DNA from: Candidatus Cloacimonadota bacterium
GTDB lineage: Bacteria; Cloacimonadota; Cloacimonadia; G963667145
Assembly (NCBI GenBank): GCA_963667255.1
Contig: OY762940.1
Location: 576,001 to 640,000 of the forward strand
Direction: 5' to 3'
Length of the DNA: 64,000 nt
The notes under the pieces are model-generated. The model worked only from the letters and a program-made list of their open reading frames with translations, did not search any database and was not told where the DNA came from. Positions within the stretch are counted from its first letter, which is position 1; every line of letters begins with the position of its first letter. Shown here in pieces: positions 12,143-20,041 of this stretch. The position numbers and the translations under genes were made by a program.

Positions 12143-14054
12143 ATCGAACAGCAGGGATATTATTCTTTTTGAAGGGAAATCTTACAATCCCGTAGTCGGC
12201 TCTTCGGTAATTTCGGGGATTTTTGCCAATAAAGGCGGTAATATCAACCGCTACGATGCTGTGATGAGCACCATAAGCACAAAATACAAATCTCATTTTT
12301 TCAAGGGTGTCTATTCTTCGGCTGAATTGGAATTGAGATTGCGAGAGATAGACAATTTTTATCTTTATGTCAAAGCTATGTTGGAGAGGGTCGCAGAGCC
12401 GGGGCACGAATGTTTTGACCTTTTGACTTCCGGAGACGCCAAGTCGTTTGCTCATTCTGTGGGGAGCATCGGTGGAGACAAGAGAAAACAAGCTTTTTTG
12501 AGTTATATTCAGGGTGTTTACTTTATAGGAAAATATGCTTTTAATTTGGCTATTCCCATGTTCGAAAAAGCTGTTCAGTTAGACCCGAATACTAATAAGT
12601 ATCGAAGCGAGTTGGTGGCAACTTATATTAAGTTGGAAGATTTGAGCAAGGCTAAATCTATTGGTGAGAGCAGTCTTAATAATCAGGCTTCGACTTCCGA
12701 TACATCTGAATTAGCTGTAACTTATGCTTATTTGATGATTATCTACGCTAAACTGAAAGACTTTGAAAAAGCGATGATTTGCAAGAAGCGGGCAGAGAGT
12801 TTGGGGATTAATCAGGGAAAATACGAGTGGGACAATTTCCGCTATGCCAAAGTGCTGAAGCTGTTGGGCGACACTTTGTATTGCTGGGGACAATACGATT
12901 CGGCGAAGGCTTATTACAACAAGGCTCTGACTTTTAATTCGCGGATGATGGAGGCAAATCGCAGTGTTTTATTGGATTTGGATTTGATGTGTGCCAATTG
13001 TGATGTGTGGATGAAAACTGGTCGATTTGGCAAAGCTGAAGAGTATGTGAAAAAGGCTGAAAACTCTTTATATTCGCTATCTAATGGGAAATCTCTTCGT
13101 AAGGCTTGGGTTTTCTCTTTGAATGGGAAATTGCAAGAACTTCGTGGAGATTATTCGCAGGCTTGCGGATATTATCGAAGTGCAGTTGTTGAGCTGGAGG
13201 GGAGTGTGGGTCATTCCCATTTGTTGGCTGGAGTGATTTTTGCCGACTATGCCAGATGCAATGCCATAGGCGGTGTGGGTGATAGTGTTGGCGGTTCTCT
13301 TGCTAATATCGTTTCAGCTTGTAAGGGTGGATTGGTATTTTCCGATGATGAAAAGTATAACAAATATTTTACTTGTGGCAGAGCGAAAAAAAATCTGAGA
13401 GATTATAGTTCTGCTGTCAAATATTATAAAAAAGCTCTGAGTAATTATGCGGATGAGTTTGGGAAATTTAGTTTCAAGGTGTTCACTGCTCAAAAATCGA
13501 TTGCCAAGTGCTATTTGAAATTGGGCAAAACGAGCAAGGCGAAGAAATATATTTTGGCGGCTATCCAGACATATCAAGGGCTGTGTTTGCCAGATTATCC
13601 CGAATATGCAACTTTGCTTATGTTGTATGGAGATGTTTTGTTGGCGGACAAAACTCTGACTGAAGCGGTGAATTTTTATGAAAAAGCTCTGAAGATGTCT
13701 TCGCAAAATTACGGTTCGGTAAATGCAATAACGGCAAAGGTTTATGAGGTTTTGAGCAATATCTATACCAAGCATGAGGTTTACGATAAGGCGATTTCCT
13801 ATCTGAACGGAGTGCTTTCTTTCAAGAGTGGGCTGCATGGTGCACGCGAGCTGGATTTTGCTTCCGATTACCGTAGTTTGGCCTCGTTGTGGCACAAAAA
13901 CGGGAATCTTACCAAAGCGAAAGAGTATTACTATAAGGTGTATCAAATCTATTTTAGGGATTTGGGCGTTTCTCACAAGGAGACCGAGTCTGCCAAAAGA
14001 GATTTTGAGAACATTTCGCAGGCATTGGAGAATAAGTCGTCTAAAAAGAAGTGA
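12129..14054 (+). CDS. Tetratricopeptide repeat protein (kinesin-light-chain-like TPRs)
   Basis: Repeated A..YY.KAL and G..H...A motifs. Overlaps the ispG stop and the plsC start. Confidence 0.8.
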   Translation: MGTSKSNSRDIILFEGKSYNPVVGSSVISGIFANKGGNINRYDAVMSTISTKYKSHFFKGVYSSAELELRLREIDNFYLYVKAMLERVAEPGHECFDLLTSGDAKSFAHSVGSIGGDKRKQAFLSYIQGVYFIGKYAFNLAIPMFEKAVQLDPNTNKYRSELVATYIKLEDLSKAKSIGESSLNNQASTSDTSELAVTYAYLMIIYAKLKDFEKAMICKKRAESLGINQGKYEWDNFRYAKVLKLLGDTLYCWGQYDSAKAYYNKALTFNSRMMEANRSVLLDLDLMCANCDVWMKTGRFGKAEEYVKKAENSLYSLSNGKSLRKAWVFSLNGKLQELRGDYSQACGYYRSAVVELEGSVGHSHLLAGVIFADYARCNAIGGVGDSVGGSLANIVSACKGGLVFSDDEKYNKYFTCGRAKKNLRDYSSAVKYYKKALSNYADEFGKFSFKVFTAQKSIAKCYLKLGKTSKAKKYILAAIQTYQGLCLPDYPEYATLLMLYGDVLLADKTLTEAVNFYEKALKMSSQNYGSVNAITAKVYEVLSNIYTKHEVYDKAISYLNGVLSFKSGLHGARELDFASDYRSLASLWHKNGNLTKAKEYYYKVYQIYFRDLGVSHKETESAKRDFENISQALENKSSKKK

Positions 14055-14737
14055 TGAAAAAAAAACTTTATTTCACTATTTGGGCGTTGATTTTTTTGAC
14101 TTCGGGAATTCCGTTTGTTCTCTATCCGTTGCTCTCTCCTATGAGAAAACTCAGAAATGCGGTTATCAGAGCGTTCGCTTTTTTTTATGCTCGCTTGAGC
14201 ATCCTCGCTACAGAGAGCAAATTTCAGATTGTGGGGAGAGAGAATCTGCCCGAGACGAATTTTCTGGCTGTTTGCAATCATCAGAACTTACTCGATATTC
14301 CCGTGATTATTTGTGCTATTCCGCGGACAATTGGGTTTATTGCCAAGAGCGAGTTATACAAAGTGCCTATCTTGGCGATGTGGATGAGGCTGCTGGGATG
14401 TATTGGATTGAAACGGAGTAGTGCCAAGGCTTCCGCCGATGTTTTTCGTAAAGGCGTGAAGAAATTGAAATCCGGTCAAAATCTTATAGTGTTTCCAGAA
14501 GGAACTAGGAGCAGAGATGGCAAAATCAAGAAATTTAAAGCGGGAAGTTTCAAAATGGCTGTGTTAGCGGAAGTTCCGGTAGTGCCGATTACTTGCATAG
14601 GGACAAACAAGCTGTTTTCGCCAAACAATGTGATAAGAGTGATAATCAATCCTCCCGTGAGTTCTGCGGGCAAATCTACCAAAGAGTTGGCGGAAGAGGT
14701 GCAAAAGGTTGTGGAGAAGGGGTTGACGGTTAGTTGA
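14051..14737 (+). CDS. plsC: 1-acyl-sn-glycerol-3-phosphate acyltransferase
   Basis: NHQNLLD (HxxxxD), FIAKSEL, FPEGTRS, VPVVP. Confidence 0.93.
   Translation: MMKKKLYFTIWALIFLTSGIPFVLYPLLSPMRKLRNAVIRAFAFFYARLSILATESKFQIVGRENLPETNFLAVCNHQNLLDIPVIICAIPRTIGFIAKSELYKVPILAMWMRLLGCIGLKRSSAKASADVFRKGVKKLKSGQNLIVFPEGTRSRDGKIKKFKAGSFKMAVLAEVPVVPITCIGTNKLFSPNNVIRVIINPPVSSAGKSTKELAEEVQKVVEKGLTVS
14671..14724 (+). repeat. plsC 3'-end direct repeat, copy 1 (54 bp)
   Basis: CAAATCTACCAAAGAGTTGGCGGAAGAGGTGCAAAAGGTTGTGGAGAAGGGGTT; 52/54 identical to 17095-17148. Confidence 0.95.
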
Positions 14738-14840
14738 AACGATTAACCTTCAATTTATTACTAATTTTATTTAGTTCTGTAAACTTCAACATCAGTAGAT
14801 TACCCAAATTACATATAGCCTTTGTTAGCGTTTCGTGCTT
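14738..14840 (-). mobile_element. attC-like recombination site (partial) downstream of the DUF3883 gene
   Basis: On the minus strand AAGCACGAAACGCTAAC lies just after the stop codon. It is an inverted repeat of 16892-16907 and is followed by an AT-rich stretch ending at the plsC stop. Confidence 0.55.
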
Positions 14841-14842
14841 TT

Positions 14843-15622
14843 TTATTTCGGAGTTACTTGCCAAGTAATAGCGTCAAAGTTGAAATCTGAAAACAATTCA
14901 TTTTGACTTATTATTTTGACATCTCCACGCCTTGTTTCTCTGTTAAAATTGTAAACTCGGTAAATAAAGGCAGAATCTTCGTATTCCTCAAAAAAGTTTT
15001 TTTCATTTTTACTCATATAAAATGGTTGATTGAAATCACCGCTTGTAGTTTTAACTTCAATATAACGAGGAGAACCGTCATCATTTATCGAGGAAATATC
15101 ATAACCTAAGCCATCTCCTTGTAATCGACTCAAATGCTGAACATTTTCCGTTGCTTTCGTTCTGTCTATTGAAAGAGCATCAATTAAGCGGTCAATTTCA
15201 AACTCTTTTATAAATTCTTCACCTTGGTCGCCTATTTCATTATTTCGGTCTCTCACTTTTTCCCAATCAACTTTACGAGCAATAAAGCGTCTTGTTTTTC
15301 CCTTTATTTTTGTTACTTCCACAGGTTGAATAACCGTTTGTGAAATAGGGTTTAGCAGAGAGAATTTGGCAGGGAGTGAACTTTTGTTAACTACAAAACC
15401 TTCATCATATGTCTTTATTGTTTCTCTTTGGTGAGCAACAATATTTCCTATCCGTTGAATGATAAGAACTTCGATTCGTGTTGTCGAGGGTATATTGTCC
15501 TCTTCACTAAATTCTAAAACTGTGTGTAAAAGTTGTTTTACTTCTGATGTGTTTAATTCACCATAAACGGTTAATAATGGTTTAATTGCCCGTCTTATTT
15601 CTGCTTCTGTATGTGCTGCCAT
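14843..15622 (-). CDS. DUF3883 (NOV C-terminal) PD-(D/E)xK nuclease, putative restriction endonuclease
   Basis: IG..GEEF...FE, GDGLGYDI.S, YIEVKTT, F.MS.NE, IYRVY. N-terminal helical (wHTH/Mrr_N-like) region. Confidence 0.85.
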   Translation of the reverse strand: MAAHTEAEIRRAIKPLLTVYGELNTSEVKQLLHTVLEFSEEDNIPSTTRIEVLIIQRIGNIVAHQRETIKTYDEGFVVNKSSLPAKFSLLNPISQTVIQPVEVTKIKGKTRRFIARKVDWEKVRDRNNEIGDQGEEFIKEFEIDRLIDALSIDRTKATENVQHLSRLQGDGLGYDISSINDDGSPRYIEVKTTSGDFNQPFYMSKNEKNFFEEYEDSAFIYRVYNFNRETRRGDVKIISQNELFSDFNFDAITWQVTPK

Positions 15623-15631
15623 TACTCTTTC

Positions 15632-16831
15632 TTAATAGTTCGTTATCATTAAATGTTCTGTCTCTCGGTTATTTCTATTCATAAAACTAACCAAATAGGT
15701 TTTGTCAAACGATTGGATTTTTAATCCTTTGTTATTGTATAATTCAAAAATGAAATCAGTATTTTTAATTATCATCATCCATTTTGCTTTGCATTTATTG
15801 ATAAGATATTTCGCTAATCTTTCTTGGTCTTTTCTTGTAAACTCGTTTTTTGCATAAGTGCTAAACTCACTGTCGTATGGTGGGTCAAGAAAAACAAAGT
15901 CATTCTTCGAAGGATTGTGTTTATAAAAGAAATCTTCAAAATCTATATTCTCAATTATTGTACTGTCAAGTAAAGATTTTAGTTCTTTTGTTTTTAGATA
16001 ATCAACTTTTTTGGAAAAGTTTTTTCGATTATAAGCAATTCCTCCATAAGGGACATTAAAATCACCGTTTGAATTATATCGAAACATTCCACTATAGGCG
16101 AAATTTCTAATAAAAAGAAAGATAGCAGATTTAAAAGCGTTATTAATTCTATATTTTTCTGTGTTATTGTAGATGTGACGAAAATGCATATAGAAAGCAC
16201 TTTTAAGTGCTGTTTCTATATTGTCTAAAATATCGTTATTTGGTAAAACTTGTTTGATTTTTTCAAGTTCCTTCATTCGTTTTATTTTACGAATTAGATT
16301 TATTTTAATTTCTTTAATAAAGTTTTCAATATTGAAGTTGAAGATAGTAGAAAACATTCCATTAAATTCTTCAGCATGAGATAAAATAAATTCAAAAAGG
16401 ATATCTTTTAATTTGGTTTCATCAATCAAGTCATCAGAATACTTTTTGTATGTTATTATAAAAAAATCTGAGTTTCTTTCAATTACGGAGGTCAGTAAAT
16501 TCCAATTATGTATAATCTCATCTACGGCTTTGAAAAAAAGTTGTTTATTACCATTTGTAATACTTTGATACAAATCAATTAACTCATCTGATTTGTCATT
16601 AATGTAGTATTTGTTTGCTTGTAAAGCTGTGTACACAGCTCCACCTCCAACAAATGGCTCAAAATAGTTTTCAAATTTTTCGGGGAGATTAGGAACAATA
16701 TATTTTAATTCTTGTTCTTTTCCTCCAGCCCATTTTATAATTGGGTATAACCGTCTTGCCTTAACATAATTGCCTATACCTAATCCAATTTGGTTATAGG
16801 TTGCAACAGGTTCTTGTACTATATTATTCAT
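15632..16831 (-). CDS. Dam-family (D12 class) N6-adenine DNA methyltransferase with a large internal insertion
   Basis: IKWAGGK, YFEPFVGGGA, IND, GMFRYN..G.FNVPYG, FLDPPY. Confidence 0.93.
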   Translation of the reverse strand: MNNIVQEPVATYNQIGLGIGNYVKARRLYPIIKWAGGKEQELKYIVPNLPEKFENYFEPFVGGGAVYTALQANKYYINDKSDELIDLYQSITNGNKQLFFKAVDEIIHNWNLLTSVIERNSDFFIITYKKYSDDLIDETKLKDILFEFILSHAEEFNGMFSTIFNFNIENFIKEIKINLIRKIKRMKELEKIKQVLPNNDILDNIETALKSAFYMHFRHIYNNTEKYRINNAFKSAIFLFIRNFAYSGMFRYNSNGDFNVPYGGIAYNRKNFSKKVDYLKTKELKSLLDSTIIENIDFEDFFYKHNPSKNDFVFLDPPYDSEFSTYAKNEFTRKDQERLAKYLINKCKAKWMMIIKNTDFIFELYNNKGLKIQSFDKTYLVSFMNRNNRETEHLMITNY

Positions 16832-16891
16832 ATTACAAAGTTAATTTTTTCAAGTAATTAACAATGCTATTGTTGAAAAGTTGTCGGTTCT

Positions 16892-16935
16892 AAGCATGAA
16901 CGCTAACATCTGTATAAACTCAATGGTATTTATCC
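16892..16935 (-). mobile_element. attC-like core site at the 5' boundary of the methylase-nuclease cassette
   Basis: Minus strand reads ...GAGTTTATACAGATGTTAGCGTTCATGCTT; GTTAGCG is complementary to CGCTAAC at the far end of the cassette. Confidence 0.55.
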
Positions 16936-16974
16936 TTTCAAATTGGCATGCTAAGCGCAATTACATTTAGTTTT

Positions 16975-17065
16975 CTTTATATTTATTTCAAAATTTATTT
17001 GAGGCTAAAAATCCAAGAATATATGTCAAGCCAAAAATCTCAAATCCTAGATAAGCTCTCTAAAA
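16975..17065 (-). repeat. Promoter-like direct repeat, copy A (~91 bp)
   Basis: Near-identical to 18977-19068. The minus strand contains TTGACA-16bp-TAGCCT pointing at the methylase cassette. Confidence 0.9.
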
Positions 17066-17094
17066 CTTTTCCCGAAGATAGGGATTTCAGTATA

Positions 17095-17148
17095 CAAATC
17101 AACCCAAGAGTTGGCGGAAGAGGTGCAAAAGGTTGTGGAGAAGGGGTT
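17095..17148 (+). repeat. plsC 3'-end direct repeat, copy 2 (54 bp)
   Basis: CAAATCAACCCAAGAGTTGGCGGAAGAGGTGCAAAAGGTTGTGGAGAAGGGGTT; matches 14671-14724. Confidence 0.95.
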
Positions 17149-17217: not shown

Positions 17218-18696
17218 TTATTCTAAATAGATAATGCGGTCAGCAAGAGCAATAATTTCATCATTCTTTGGAGCAAGTTGTGCATCATTATTTTCTGCGA
17301 TGAAACCAATTATGTTAATATCTTGGTCAATTTGATATTGTTTCAATTCTTTAAATTTAACTGGCTCTTTAAATCCAAAATGTTCTAACTTATTTTCTTT
17401 GATGACACGCCCATCTAAATTCAACATTTCATAAAGCAAAGGAGAAATATAAGGATGTCTAATACAATTTGAAATCAAATTTGCATCAATAGATTCTTTG
17501 TATATGATTTCATCACCTTTTATTTTGTCTCTTATTATTTCAGAATTTTCTTGGTTAATTATTTCTGCAATTGTATGGACATTTTTATTTTCTTGTTCAA
17601 TATTAAAAACTGTTAGTACAGTTCGCATATCAACATTTTTTTGGGGTTCATTTCCTTGATACTCTGCAAATATAACAGCAAGGCTACAGTCACAAATATT
17701 AACTTTTCTCAATGTATCAATACTTGAATAATCGCCATTAAAATAAATAATTCCATTTAAGCTTGGGTTTTCTTTTTCAGTTACTAAAACAATTCTTTTA
17801 GAATAGAGTTTCTTGTTTTTCAATATTTCTTCGATTACTTTTGAAGTGGAGGATGTATATCCGCAAAGAACAATATGGTCTTTAATAGTTAGTTTCCCAA
17901 GTTTTCCTTTTTTAATGTTACTCATAATCTCTCCCGATTTAGTTGATATAGTAGAAATAAAAAAACTAATAAACGAAATATTTGCAATCAAAGTAAATGA
18001 AGAAAAAATTTTGCCCATTACAGTAGTTGGGGCATCATCACATATCCCAACAAGTTTCAATGTATAATTTAAATAGTGAAAGTAAGAATTTGCATTACCT
18101 ACCTGTGATTCTGACAAAAATAGTGCAAATGAATTAATTATTACAATAAATAATGTTCCCAGTAAGAGAATAGCTATCAAAAAGTAGGATTCTTTGAAAC
18201 TCCTTACTAAAATAGAAATATTTGAAAAAGATTTTTTTACTTTTAATAGTCTAATAAATTTTAAAAATTTAATAAACCTTAATAATCTACAGGTTCTAAA
18301 AAATCGAAGAAACCGAATAATTGGAATAAGAGAAACTAAATCGATAATTGGAAAGGGAGATAAAATCCATTTAACTTTATTTGTAATAGCATAGATTATA
18401 GAACCATCTTCGTCTTTTATATCTTCTATGAAATCGGAAGAAATATAAAAGCGAGTTAGATATTCAATAGCAAAGAATACTGTTAAGGAAGTATCTATAT
18501 TGAATAAATAATTCGGTAAGTTTAAATCTGAAAAAAATAATTCAAAAAATGTAGAAATAACAGAAATAAAAATAATAAGGAGCAAAATTAAATCTACATA
18601 TACTCTTTTGGAATTATTTTCACTCTCTAACCACCAGTAAAGAAAGCCCTTTAATCCTTTTTGCTGTTTTTCCGCATATCTATCTAATTTTGACAT
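17218..18696 (-). CDS. 6TM voltage-sensor ion channel with RCK (TrkA-N-like) domain and degenerate pore filter
   Basis: S2 FAIEYLTRF, S3 IIDLVSLIP, S4 RFLRFFRTCRLLRFIK, RCK HIVLCG and D.RTVLTV. Pore reads LVGICDDAPTT instead of TVGYGD. Confidence 0.85.
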   Translation of the reverse strand: MSKLDRYAEKQQKGLKGFLYWWLESENNSKRVYVDLILLLIIFISVISTFFELFFSDLNLPNYLFNIDTSLTVFFAIEYLTRFYISSDFIEDIKDEDGSIIYAITNKVKWILSPFPIIDLVSLIPIIRFLRFFRTCRLLRFIKFLKFIRLLKVKKSFSNISILVRSFKESYFLIAILLLGTLFIVIINSFALFLSESQVGNANSYFHYLNYTLKLVGICDDAPTTVMGKIFSSFTLIANISFISFFISTISTKSGEIMSNIKKGKLGKLTIKDHIVLCGYTSSTSKVIEEILKNKKLYSKRIVLVTEKENPSLNGIIYFNGDYSSIDTLRKVNICDCSLAVIFAEYQGNEPQKNVDMRTVLTVFNIEQENKNVHTIAEIINQENSEIIRDKIKGDEIIYKESIDANLISNCIRHPYISPLLYEMLNLDGRVIKENKLEHFGFKEPVKFKELKQYQIDQDINIIGFIAENNDAQLAPKNDEIIALADRIIYLE

Positions 18697-18705
18697 TTAC
18701 TATTT

Positions 18706-18966
18706 TTAATAAAGTCCAATAATTTTACCAATAATAACGGGAATAGGTTGGTCATTTCGGTCGTAGGTGTTTGAAGAGTTAGCTCCAGATTTTGGTTTTA
18801 CATGTGTTGCAGATACTTCCCAAGAATTTGAAGATGATGCTCCTGAGCGTGGTTTGATTTTCTTGCCGTCAAATTCCCAAGAATTTGATAGCAAGGCACC
18901 GCTTTTTGGTTTTAATTTTTTGCCGTCCCACAGCCAATCGCGTGGTAACTCAATTTTGTTAGCCAT
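18706..18966 (-). CDS. Small protein with three ~19-aa tandem repeats
   Basis: WLWDGKKLKPKSGALLSNS / WEFDGKKIKPRSGASSSNS / WEVSATHVKPKSGANSSNT. AAAGGA RBS; 9 nt upstream of the channel gene. Confidence 0.8.
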   Translation of the reverse strand: MANKIELPRDWLWDGKKLKPKSGALLSNSWEFDGKKIKPRSGASSSNSWEVSATHVKPKSGANSSNTYDRNDQPIPVIIGKIIGLY

Positions 18967-18976
18967 AAAATTTTTC

Positions 18977-19068
18977 CTTTATATTTATTTCAAAATTTAT
19001 TTGAGGCTAAAAATCCAAGAATATATGTCAAGCAATAAGTCCTCAAATCCTAGATAAGCTCTCTAAAA
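18977..19068 (-). repeat. Promoter-like direct repeat, copy B (~92 bp)
   Basis: Near-identical to 16975-17065. TTGACA-16bp-TAGCCT is followed by an RBS and the ATG of the repeat-protein gene. Confidence 0.9.
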
Positions 19069-19078
19069 TTTTTTCTAT

Positions 19079-20041
19079 CTATGAAGGGCGATATCTATAT
19101 TTGGTTAATCTTTTCTCGCCTATTTTTATTAAGATTTTATTTTCGACTGCATTTTTCAGGTCGCGACTCGCTGTTGCAGAAGAAATATCTTTATTATGTC
19201 TCATATAATCTTGACGCGAAAATTCATTGTTGCCAATAAAACTTTTGAATAATTCTATTCTATCTTTATCTGTTGGGCTCAATTGTTGGGTTCTCAACAA
19301 ATCTTCAAGAGCGAAGTTAATGATTTCTAACATAAATTCTATAAAAAGGGTAGATTCTCCTAAGCTATTAGATTTTCCAAGAACATTGTAATAGTTCTGT
19401 TGTTTTTCTTTTATCAAAGTTTCAATTGGTAAAAATTCAAATACTGGGGAATACTCTTTTAAAATCACTGTTTGCCATAGTCTTCCCATTCTTCCGTTTC
19501 CATCAATGAATGGATGGATGAATTCAAATTCGTAATGAAACACGCAACTCTTTATCAAGATAATGTCATTGTCGTTTTTTAAATAATCGAATAGATTTTT
19601 TAGTAAAGGGTAAACCATATCTCCAGGAGGAGCCAGATGTGCTAATTGATTTCCTTTTAAAATCCCAACTGCCGTATTTCTTATATTGCCAGCATTATCA
19701 ACGAGGTTATTCATCAGAATTTTGTGAGCCGAACAAAGTGACTTCATATCATAAACTTTGAATTTATTTAGATTTTTGTAAACATTGATGGCATTTTTTA
19801 CCTCTATAATATCTTTTTCAGGGGCTAAAACTTTTTTGTTGTCTAATAAATCCGTTATTTGCTCAATAGTCAGAGTGTTCCCTTCGATTTCTAAAGATGC
19901 TTGAATTGTTTTAATTCTGTTCTTTTTTCTAAGTTCTGTAGGGGGCTTTGTAAGACGAGCAGCCTTTATTTCTCCAATTTTTTCCGAAATGGAAGAGATT
20001 AAATTTAAAATTTTGTTTGTTATTTTATAAGGAGGTTTCAT
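19079..20041 (-). CDS. Fic family protein with C-terminal winged HTH
   Basis: SLEIEGN, canonical HPFIDGNGRMGR Fic motif, C-terminal SRQDY...ISSATASRDL. Confidence 0.93.
   Translation of the reverse strand: MKPPYKITNKILNLISSISEKIGEIKAARLTKPPTELRKKNRIKTIQASLEIEGNTLTIEQITDLLDNKKVLAPEKDIIEVKNAINVYKNLNKFKVYDMKSLCSAHKILMNNLVDNAGNIRNTAVGILKGNQLAHLAPPGDMVYPLLKNLFDYLKNDNDIILIKSCVFHYEFEFIHPFIDGNGRMGRLWQTVILKEYSPVFEFLPIETLIKEKQQNYYNVLGKSNSLGESTLFIEFMLEIINFALEDLLRTQQLSPTDKDRIELFKSFIGNNEFSRQDYMRHNKDISSATASRDLKNAVENKILIKIGEKRLTKYRYRPS

Follow-up and report, generated by a model that had tools for sequence, protein, structure and literature searches.

A methylase-nuclease gene cassette at an attI-like site of a Cloacimonadota genome, and a recombinase without the IntI insertion as its predicted means of placement

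The window analyzed here, a whole stretch of 64,000 nucleotides (64 kb) from the genome of a Candidatus Cloacimonadota bacterium (G000; one contig, 98.9% complete, 1.6 Mb), contains a DNA methyltransferase gene and a predicted nuclease gene that form one gene cassette with matching ends. Here it is proposed, with a probability of about three in four, that this cassette was put at the G|TT of a docking site of ~75 bp, element E, of which the genome has six, by a tyrosine recombinase without the insertion specific to the integron integrase (IntI), and that this recombinase has since been lost from the genome. Positions are those of the window unless given as positions of G000; other genomes, loci and read runs are labeled G, L and X, respectively.

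Cassette Ends and Gene Content

The cassette and the host gene next to it have the following features:

14051..14737, plus strand: plsC-like acyltransferase (PF01553), a host gene with an orthologue in 5/5 congeners; the attC downstream of the cassette is cut off at the plsC stop codon
14843..15622, minus strand: predicted nuclease of 259 aa with a NOV_C domain (PF13020, E 5.6e-16; PADLOC PDC-S36, E 1e-34, and PD-T4-1, E 5e-20)
15632..16831, minus strand: Dam-family N6-adenine DNA methyltransferase of 399 aa (PF02086; TIGR00571, above cut-off)
16892..16907, minus strand: 5' end of the cassette, the core GTTAGCG and nine more bases complementary to the far end; the G|TT crossover would lie at 16907/16906

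The two ends, GTTAGCGTTTCGTGCTT at 14824-14840 and AAGCATGAACGCTAAC at 16892-16907, are inverted copies of each other, the reverse complement of the latter aligning to the former with one indel and one mismatch. On the minus strand, which is the coding strand, GTTAGCG opens the unit at 16907, 76 nt upstream of the methylase start, and CGCTAAC terminates 19 nt past the nuclease stop codon. The unit has in this way a GTT core before its genes and a complementary AAC-ending inverse core after the last stop, the two agreeing at 7/7 positions, and in the window cassette and several homologues the complementarity of the ends reaches about 15 nt. An earlier interpretation made from the letters of this DNA (the sequence-only reading) had described these ends and the departure of GTTAGCG from the core consensus GTTRRRY, and the alignment agrees with it on each of these points; among the five core types of the homologous cassettes, GTTAGGC alone fits the consensus. 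When random genome windows of 125 nt and 45 nt were paired 5000 times, an exact 7/7 GTT core and inverse core arose by chance in 24 pairs, and a pattern derived from the end pair, expected 0.01 times per shuffled window, had the copy at 14824 as its sole match. The pair is not among the 25 longest of the 146 inverted repeats listed in the window by a repeat finder that extends ungapped. The G+C content of the unit is 30% vs. 39% in the genome.

The methylase has its best PDB matches in 2dpm (DpnII methylase) and in DNA adenine methylase entries, with the DPPY motif aligned, and it is a solitary DNA methyltransferase with intact motifs adjoining a nuclease gene, which is the arrangement of Type II restriction-modification. 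As in Type II systems with a Dam-family (D12) methylase (e.g., DpnII), the N6-adenine methylase is closely followed by a predicted nuclease; however, the nuclease here is a NOV_C-domain protein with no real match in the PDB and no restriction endonuclease match in PADLOC. The methylase and nuclease likely restrict unmethylated DNA, the nuclease activity being predicted, and restriction-modification cargo is in itself ordinary. The search for the methylase target by k-mer avoidance gave no specific signal. Across G000, the observed/expected ratios of 4-base palindromes are 0.03 for GCGC, 0.03 for ACGT, 0.06 for GGCC, 0.09 for GATC, 0.15 for GTAC and 0.19 for CTAG.

Homologous Gene Pairs and Origin of the Cassette

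Scanning the GTDB genomes for the nuclease yielded 18 loci (74-88% identity), and in 17 of these the methylase lies directly upstream. The ends were compared in 15 loci, that is, 14 homologous loci and the window (L012, L015, L016 and L020 were left out, one end being absent), and an exact 7/7 core and inverse core was present in ten of the 15 (nine flagged by script; L005 read from the script output). The matched cores belong to five sequence types that co-vary, with 20/110 non-cognate matches, all among the five loci sharing one type. In the homologues, the cassette ends adjoin long hairpins of about 120-130 nt, so that a complete attC hairpin follows the genes there and not in the window. 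In an alignment of ten hairpins, two-sided changes were found at 14/17 pairs, above 500 shuffles and all slid controls. The neighbors differ between the homologous loci and DNA identity stops at the cassette edges, as befits a mobile unit. Judged by its ends and its homologues, the methylase-nuclease unit is a real gene cassette, and the capture proposed in the sequence-only reading is sustained by homologous pairs that keep co-varying cores and lie between complete long attC hairpins.

Ca. Cloacimonas (G008) and the host are members of one class, and the nuclease was found in no other of the 232 genomes of this class. Among the homologous loci, 13/18 are from Bacteroidota and 4/18 from other phyla, the latter on contigs of 2-4 kb; the best DNA identity to a homologue is 82%. 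In a tree of 16 cassette sequences, the window sequence stands among the Bacteroidota rows, with no supported clade holding it. The cassette probably comes from a Bacteroidota-rich pool. Of the cross-phylum capture claimed earlier, the sharing between phyla is well supported, the closest relatives being mostly from Bacteroidota; the direction from Bacteroidota to Cloacimonadota is no more than likely, as there is no supported clade and the recombinase family is itself present in 39/232 genomes of the host class (and in 1/6 of the genus).

Element E, a Likely Docking Site Upstream of the Cassette

Upstream of the cassette, the following two features overlap:

16908..16982, minus strand: element E, an attI-like site of ~75 bp, with two related ~12-nt boxes (16969-16958 and 16932-16921) around a central CCAATTT, ending in GAT before the GTT
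16971..17070, minus strand: copy 1 of a 100-nt repeat (94% identical to 18973-19073), the predicted promoter region of the cassette, with TTGACA at 17029-17024

Six clear copies of E are found in G000, with the G of GTT at 250032, 306141, 485401, 592907, 685509 and 1228192; a seventh, at about 347.4 kb, is decayed. Identity among the six copies is 62-81%, and a five-copy pattern has five matches in G000 and none in the 231 other class genomes. A BLAST search of E over 41 relatives found none in the five congeners, and a later model (R2) found sites in G001 and G002. A strict IUPAC pattern for E, which matched neither metagenome contigs nor viral contigs, was rejected as too specific; a hidden Markov model (HMM) applied to recombinase loci succeeded.

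Every copy of E ends at G|TT ahead of a different cassette and is followed by co-oriented low-G+C genes, with methylases behind 3/6 copies. In the first cassette behind E, the inverse core agrees at 7/7 positions at four of the six sites and at 6/7 at the other two. A cassette of 188 aa is common to G000 and the congener G003 (97% over 780 nt), and the edge of identity falls exactly at the G of GTT; in G000 it is preceded by E and in G003 by a full attC, and therefore E takes the place of attI.

The sequence-only reading had taken both flanks of the unit for truncated halves of long, Bacteroidota-like attC sites. For the upstream flank this did not hold: the window E does not fold as DNA (z +0.3/+0.4), the genome contains five further clear copies of it, and a homologous site lies adjacent to recombinase genes. 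Five of the six E copies do not fold (z -0.9 to +1.2), none is matched by the attC model, and none has an upstream attC arm. One E copy does fold at z -2.0 to -2.6, as does the E-like site of G044 at z -2.9 to -4.3, and E is quasi-palindromic, with weaker HMM matches on the opposite strand. The E-like site at L053:4029-4098 (G013) aligns best when reversed, with GTT and a gene at the other end, and the G003 site also aligns better to the reversed E; such a site may be usable from either end.

The motif TTGAC[AT] is found 111-141 nt upstream of the G in 6/7 E sites. In many E copies, as well as in L157, L160, L197 and L231, a stretch resembling a ribosome-binding site and a start codon are found, together with a reading frame that continues across G|TT into the cassette; this frame is open in 4/7 G000 copies and stops at codon 2 in the window copy. 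The accessible text of PMC8876359 describes a comparable short frame, ORF-11 of attI1. A peptide function is not claimed for the E frame, the sequence changes being spread over all codon positions by the authors' count. At a further locus, L027 (G000 243100, minus strand), a decayed E-like end with GGT for GTT stands before two genes and a short hairpin site, and two similar stretches of ~35 nt bracket the locus.

Downstream Flank and attC Sites

The downstream flank holds one feature:

14735..14830, minus strand: truncated long attC with inverse core CGCTAAC (14830-14824), spacer, left arm and loop, the right arm and final GTT being absent; it resembles the starts of sites L003, L122, L123 and L127

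For this flank the earlier reading stood. It begins like the complete sites in L003 and in Bacteroidota genomes, where likeness was found in 6/151 genomes searched (of four matches inspected, three were complete hairpins), and it reaches the plsC stop after about 90 nt as the 5' part of an attC, with no right arm. It does not fold (z +0.7/+1.4), and in the window, the truncated attC included, there is no match to R1, a covariance model of attC built without G000 sequences. The loss of the attC 3' arm likely prevents excision, so that, judging from this anatomy, the cassette is now locked in. Of the two flanks, the right one has several copies in this genome; the left flank (14738-14840) has no second copy except the 54-nt plsC-tail repeat.

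Elsewhere in G000, R1 found four complete attC sites, a lower bound because R1 scored only 150/738 candidates, and 18 in the five congeners (two of these 18 in its training set). All six near-complete genomes of the genus carry long attC sites, and 4/5 complete sites tested fold at z -2 to -3.8. The authors' own attC scanner gave 18 matches over the whole genome that were noise and missed visible sites, and it was replaced by R1. At L121:8074-8200 (G000 667073-667199), a match to the attC model without E upstream overlaps the start of an ORF on the opposite strand.

Recombinase Genes Adjoining E-Like Sites

Among relatives of the candidate recombinase in metagenomes, the best 80 of 540 were taken, 70 of which had sequence after the stop codon. 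An HMM made solely from the G000 copies of E matched 5/70 of these loci at 31-44 bits, the matches starting 9-27 nt from the recombinase stop, and four more of the 70 at 19-21 bits; none of 73 upstream controls reached >=5 bits. In the host class, E was found behind the recombinase in G210, one of 30 class loci. In L157, L163, L160, L151, L197, L231 and G044, the site lies beside the recombinase gene and the array starts at its G|TT. G044 has three identical recombinase copies with an E-like site (score 46 vs. a background maximum of 27 in 3000), and one of its arrays behind the recombinase and this site holds the methylase-nuclease cassette. R1, run on the 69 of 110 recombinase loci with more flank, gave 26 attC matches in 18/69 loci, all downstream and co-oriented.

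The catalytic R-K-H-R-H-Y columns are conserved in the recombinases, and two stretches of about 31 and 11 residues (about 42 in all) that two IntI of the same class possess are missing from them; with TIGR02249 the recombinases score 208-220 bits vs. the cut-off of 265. The IntI-specific insertion that marks classical integrons is, accordingly, absent from the associated recombinase. Like XerC/XerD and archaeal XerA, they have about 280 aa, the catalytic residues and no IntI insertion, and their best NCBIfam match is NF040815, above cut-off for 3/4 tested. Unlike XerC/XerD, they are nearer IntI (38% to the first IntI sequence) than the host XerC/XerD (31-33%) and head cassette arrays, XerC/XerD-like genes existing separately.

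In G000, E has no recombinase beside it. Only two tyrosine recombinases are encoded, one XerD-like and one XerC-like; no further match to the profile of the candidate family and no IntI were found in this genome, nor any recombinase remnant by tblastn or profile. The intI gene that the sequence-only reading would have sought elsewhere in the genome is thus absent, and the associated enzyme is not IntI. By eye alone, a likeness to the 3' end of the recombinase is seen in ~30 nt that precede the 685.5-kb site. In the congener G003, an intact recombinase lies directly after comM, followed by a co-oriented short site and a cassette array, and there are also frameshifted and 3'-only recombinase copies, each with the same site and other cassettes; in G002, a 3' remnant of the recombinase is followed by an E-like site. 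The recombinase is predicted to have been lost from G000, the congeners forming a series from intact to frameshifted, remnant and gone.

The 3' end of comM has repeatedly served as a landing place: in G003 (L052), it is followed by the recombinase and array, in G000 (L022, about 303.9 kb) directly by a cassette-like gene, and in a metagenome-assembled genome of Bacteroidota (L006) directly by the methylase-nuclease pair.

Proposed Mechanism and Alternative Explanations

By analogy with integrons, the cassette would have traveled as a circle, its two ends forming one hairpin attC, and the recombinase would have joined this hairpin to the double-stranded docking site E; a circular intermediate, a hairpin attC recombining with a double-stranded site, and an upstream promoter are integron biology as given in the accessible text of PMC8618304. 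The methylase and nuclease may be expressed from a promoter just upstream of E, as one Type II-like restriction-modification unit. Complete platforms have the recombinase gene directly upstream of, and co-directional with, the cassettes, and its decay would leave promoter and docking site. E sites would have been acquired more than once, and a later deletion of the attC 3' arm likely locked in the window cassette.

Several observations weigh against this proposal. Among the 15 loci compared, five lack a matching end pair (four with no match; L019 with a spurious match only), and the pairing statistics of the ten hairpins are partly circular because these were picked by the authors' own hairpin scanner. 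At the E sites, the 60-nt windows for the inverse-core check were chosen by hand, and the six-copy HMM of E scores its own members by construction. The consensus promoter scan does not call TTGACA at 17029-17024, and it totals 27 sites vs. 24.9 by chance. The observed/expected ratio of GATC is 0.18 in the cassettes, yet 0.27 in the flanks, its scarcity not being cassette-specific. Behind the recombinase gene, other sequences are found in 61/70 metagenome and 28/30 class loci, E therefore being one of many site types, and 51/69 loci have no attC match, including all 13 host-class loci (at most about 1.5 kb downstream). There is no clear recombinase remnant upstream of the window E, and the action of the recombinase on E and attC sites is deduced from its position.

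The same anatomy could have been produced by another enzyme (the host XerC/XerD, an IntI acting in trans or an unrecognized partner), with the adjacent recombinase only mobilizing the platform. This is unlikely. In its favor, the accessible text of PMC8138268 deems the insertion that the adjacent recombinase lacks essential for integron function; XerC/XerD-like genes are also present, and classical IntI occur in 5/41 relatives. However, no classical IntI was found in any of the six near-complete genomes of the genus, each of which nevertheless has long attC sites; site and array occupy a fixed position behind the recombinase, and the five IntI loci have host-like neighbors and no E match. As to these loci themselves (L028-L032: G009, G011, G013, G021 and G025), all are from one other family of the class, and the host-like neighbors were seen within 1.5 kb.

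The version of the sequence-only reading, in which a piece of a foreign array was cut inside attC on both sides and joined by illegitimate recombination, both flanks being attC halves, is improbable. The cut downstream attC and the direct repeats that bracket the unit speak for it, as do the quasi-palindromic nature of E, with its opposite-strand matches, and the folding of one E copy and of the G044 site; the remaining copies are unfolded, attC model and upstream arm are wanting throughout, and homologues of E follow recombinase stop codons. A single cassette placed by an integron integrase at a secondary site (attG), as in a SALIN, with an ordinary host repeat upstream, seems the least probable of all. 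SALINs are common and arise via attG according to the accessible part of 10.1101/2022.09.11.507474, and there is no integrase nearby; however, attG sites are described as very numerous and as differing from both attI and attC, the target here is conserved over 75 bp and has foreign homologues, of up to 88% identity, that lie behind recombinase genes, and E is absent from the empty orthologous loci of the congeners. Placement at E by the recombinase without the insertion is preferred over these alternatives.

History of the Sites and Possible Loading in Trans

At 88% identity, the E copy at 685.5 kb is nearer to the site that follows the recombinase of L157 than to the other G000 copies, and therefore at least two separate acquisitions of E are indicated. 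In the sister species G001, the orthologue of this E is identical at 75/78 bases, with 56/76 just upstream and 78-81% in the flanking genes. A recombinase is absent from this locus in both G000 and G001, which nonetheless differ in the cassette joined there, at one and the same G|TT. As the simplest reading, this suggests a precise cassette exchange after local loss of the recombinase, with the enzyme acting in trans; alternatively, old alleles may have recombined within E. More sites that lack a recombinase and have TTGAC upstream and a cassette following GTT are found in G005 (three: L117, L118 and L119), G001 (one: L112) and G002 (L113), and two G005 sites are, as judged by eye, clearly related to the one that follows the recombinase remnant of G002. 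About 17 nt of the recombinase's final codons seem to persist in L119. The plsC locus is empty in 4/5 congeners and has other genes in G001, and the 1228-kb locus is nearly empty in 3/5.

More broadly, and at somewhat less than even odds, a distributed system may be envisaged, in which a recombinase without the IntI insertion recombines hairpin cassettes, orphan promoter and docking sites are selected at many places and reloaded in trans, and a 1.6-Mb Cloacimonadota genome draws defense cassettes from a pool shared with Bacteroidota.

Contigs holding the stretch were found in three runs (X1, X2 and X3) of one study and two samples, one of them maybe the source sample; X4 and X5 had scattered pieces only. 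None of the runs found to hold the stretch was of RNA, and no circle junction was found among the assembled contigs. In X1, a 2310-nt contig spans both cassette junctions and a 134-nt contig covers the joint of plsC tail and promoter. In X1, X2 and X3, a 4297-nt contig begins with 33 nt of E and passes from GTT into another sequence, and X3 has a second contig of this E-to-other-sequence type. A 12-letter piece of the 4297-nt contig is at no E site of G000, and such contigs represent further cassettes at E-type sites, not an exchange in this strain; they may belong to other strains or species. The contig depth in X3 is 10-11 on the cassette and Fic side and 3.8 in the channel block, and no contig lies over the joint 17080-17110, which fits two separate versions of the locus and is no proof of them.

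Relation to Known Systems

Like classical integrons, the system has gene units of promoterless type, delimited by GTT core and AAC inverse core, with hairpin sites behind the genes; a docking site without a hairpin, which heads the array, the crossover falling at G|TT; and defense cargo (known for integrons from the accessible text of 10.1101/2024.07.02.601686). Unlike them, its recombinase is without the IntI-specific insertion and under the TIGR02249 cut-off, its cores often depart from GTTRRRY, a genome has several platforms, and the recombinase is transcribed toward the cassettes. In class 1 integrons the integrase gene is divergent from the cassettes, and the IntI-specific insertion is held to let integrases recombine folded single-stranded attC. 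With integron-like behavior and a failed IntI test, the system is therefore a variant, not a member, of the integrons.

As in CALINs and SALINs, integrase-less clusters and single cassettes, respectively, no integrase lies beside the window cassette, but its attC is incomplete (the four complete sites are elsewhere in G000); here, a docking site and promoter-like stretch remain at each array, and congeners allow the missing enzyme to be identified, which is not IntI. Among the origins proposed for CALINs is loss of the integrase gene, although 95% of CALINs have no intI pseudogene nearby, as reported in the available text of PMC4889954. The series in the congeners illustrates one route to integrase-less cassettes. 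An attI heading a CALIN is known from one report, on a Shewanella prophage, in the accessible part of PMC9892861. Bacteroidota are among the phyla with integrons in what could be consulted of PMC8618304, and the available text on IntegronFinder 2.0 (10.1101/2022.02.28.482270) names one complete integron in Bacteroidetes proper.

A literature search, with most subscription journals and supplements outside its reach, found no published description of this recombinase system. If the proposal is true, a widespread recombinase without the insertion, heading hairpin-cassette arrays, would revise the view of the IntI insertion. Tools requiring IntI would miss such platforms, which would explain the near-absence of complete integrons from Bacteroidota and related phyla that is noted in the accessible part of 10.1101/2022.02.28.482270. 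The orthologous site with two different cassettes suggests that orphan sites are no dead ends. What makes the system of interest is its enzyme, together with the evidence that sites are loaded in trans.

Repeats and Neighboring Island

The cassette is flanked by direct repeats and, beyond these, by further genes:

14671..14724, plus strand: 54-nt direct repeat, copy 1 (plsC 3' end), 96% identical to 17095-17148
17095..17148, plus strand: 54-nt direct repeat, copy 2 (stranded plsC tail), found by repeat search
17218..18696, minus strand: ion-channel protein of 492 aa with an RCK domain (PF00520, PF22614, PF02254), with neither inverse core nor attC seen after it
18973..19073, minus strand: 100-nt repeat, copy 2, running into an 86-aa ORF (18706-18966); of E, no more than the first ~11 nt is retained

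The 54-nt and 100-nt repeats are likely traces of a separate event, in which two versions of this variable locus were joined without a recombinase. The low-G+C island at 17218-20041 is common to the RCK-domain ion channel, the 86-aa ORF, which has internal repeats, and a Fic-domain protein (PADLOC SoFic). Two other repeated sequences were observed in G000: about 1.7 kb of the G005 cassette region (L119:6586-8317) is 97% identical to G000 123160-124880 and 994166-992438, and a multi-copy element, probably an insertion sequence, that is 83% like L115:6636-6813 of G002 is present at 19 places in G000 (e.g., 29798, 53933 and 132392).

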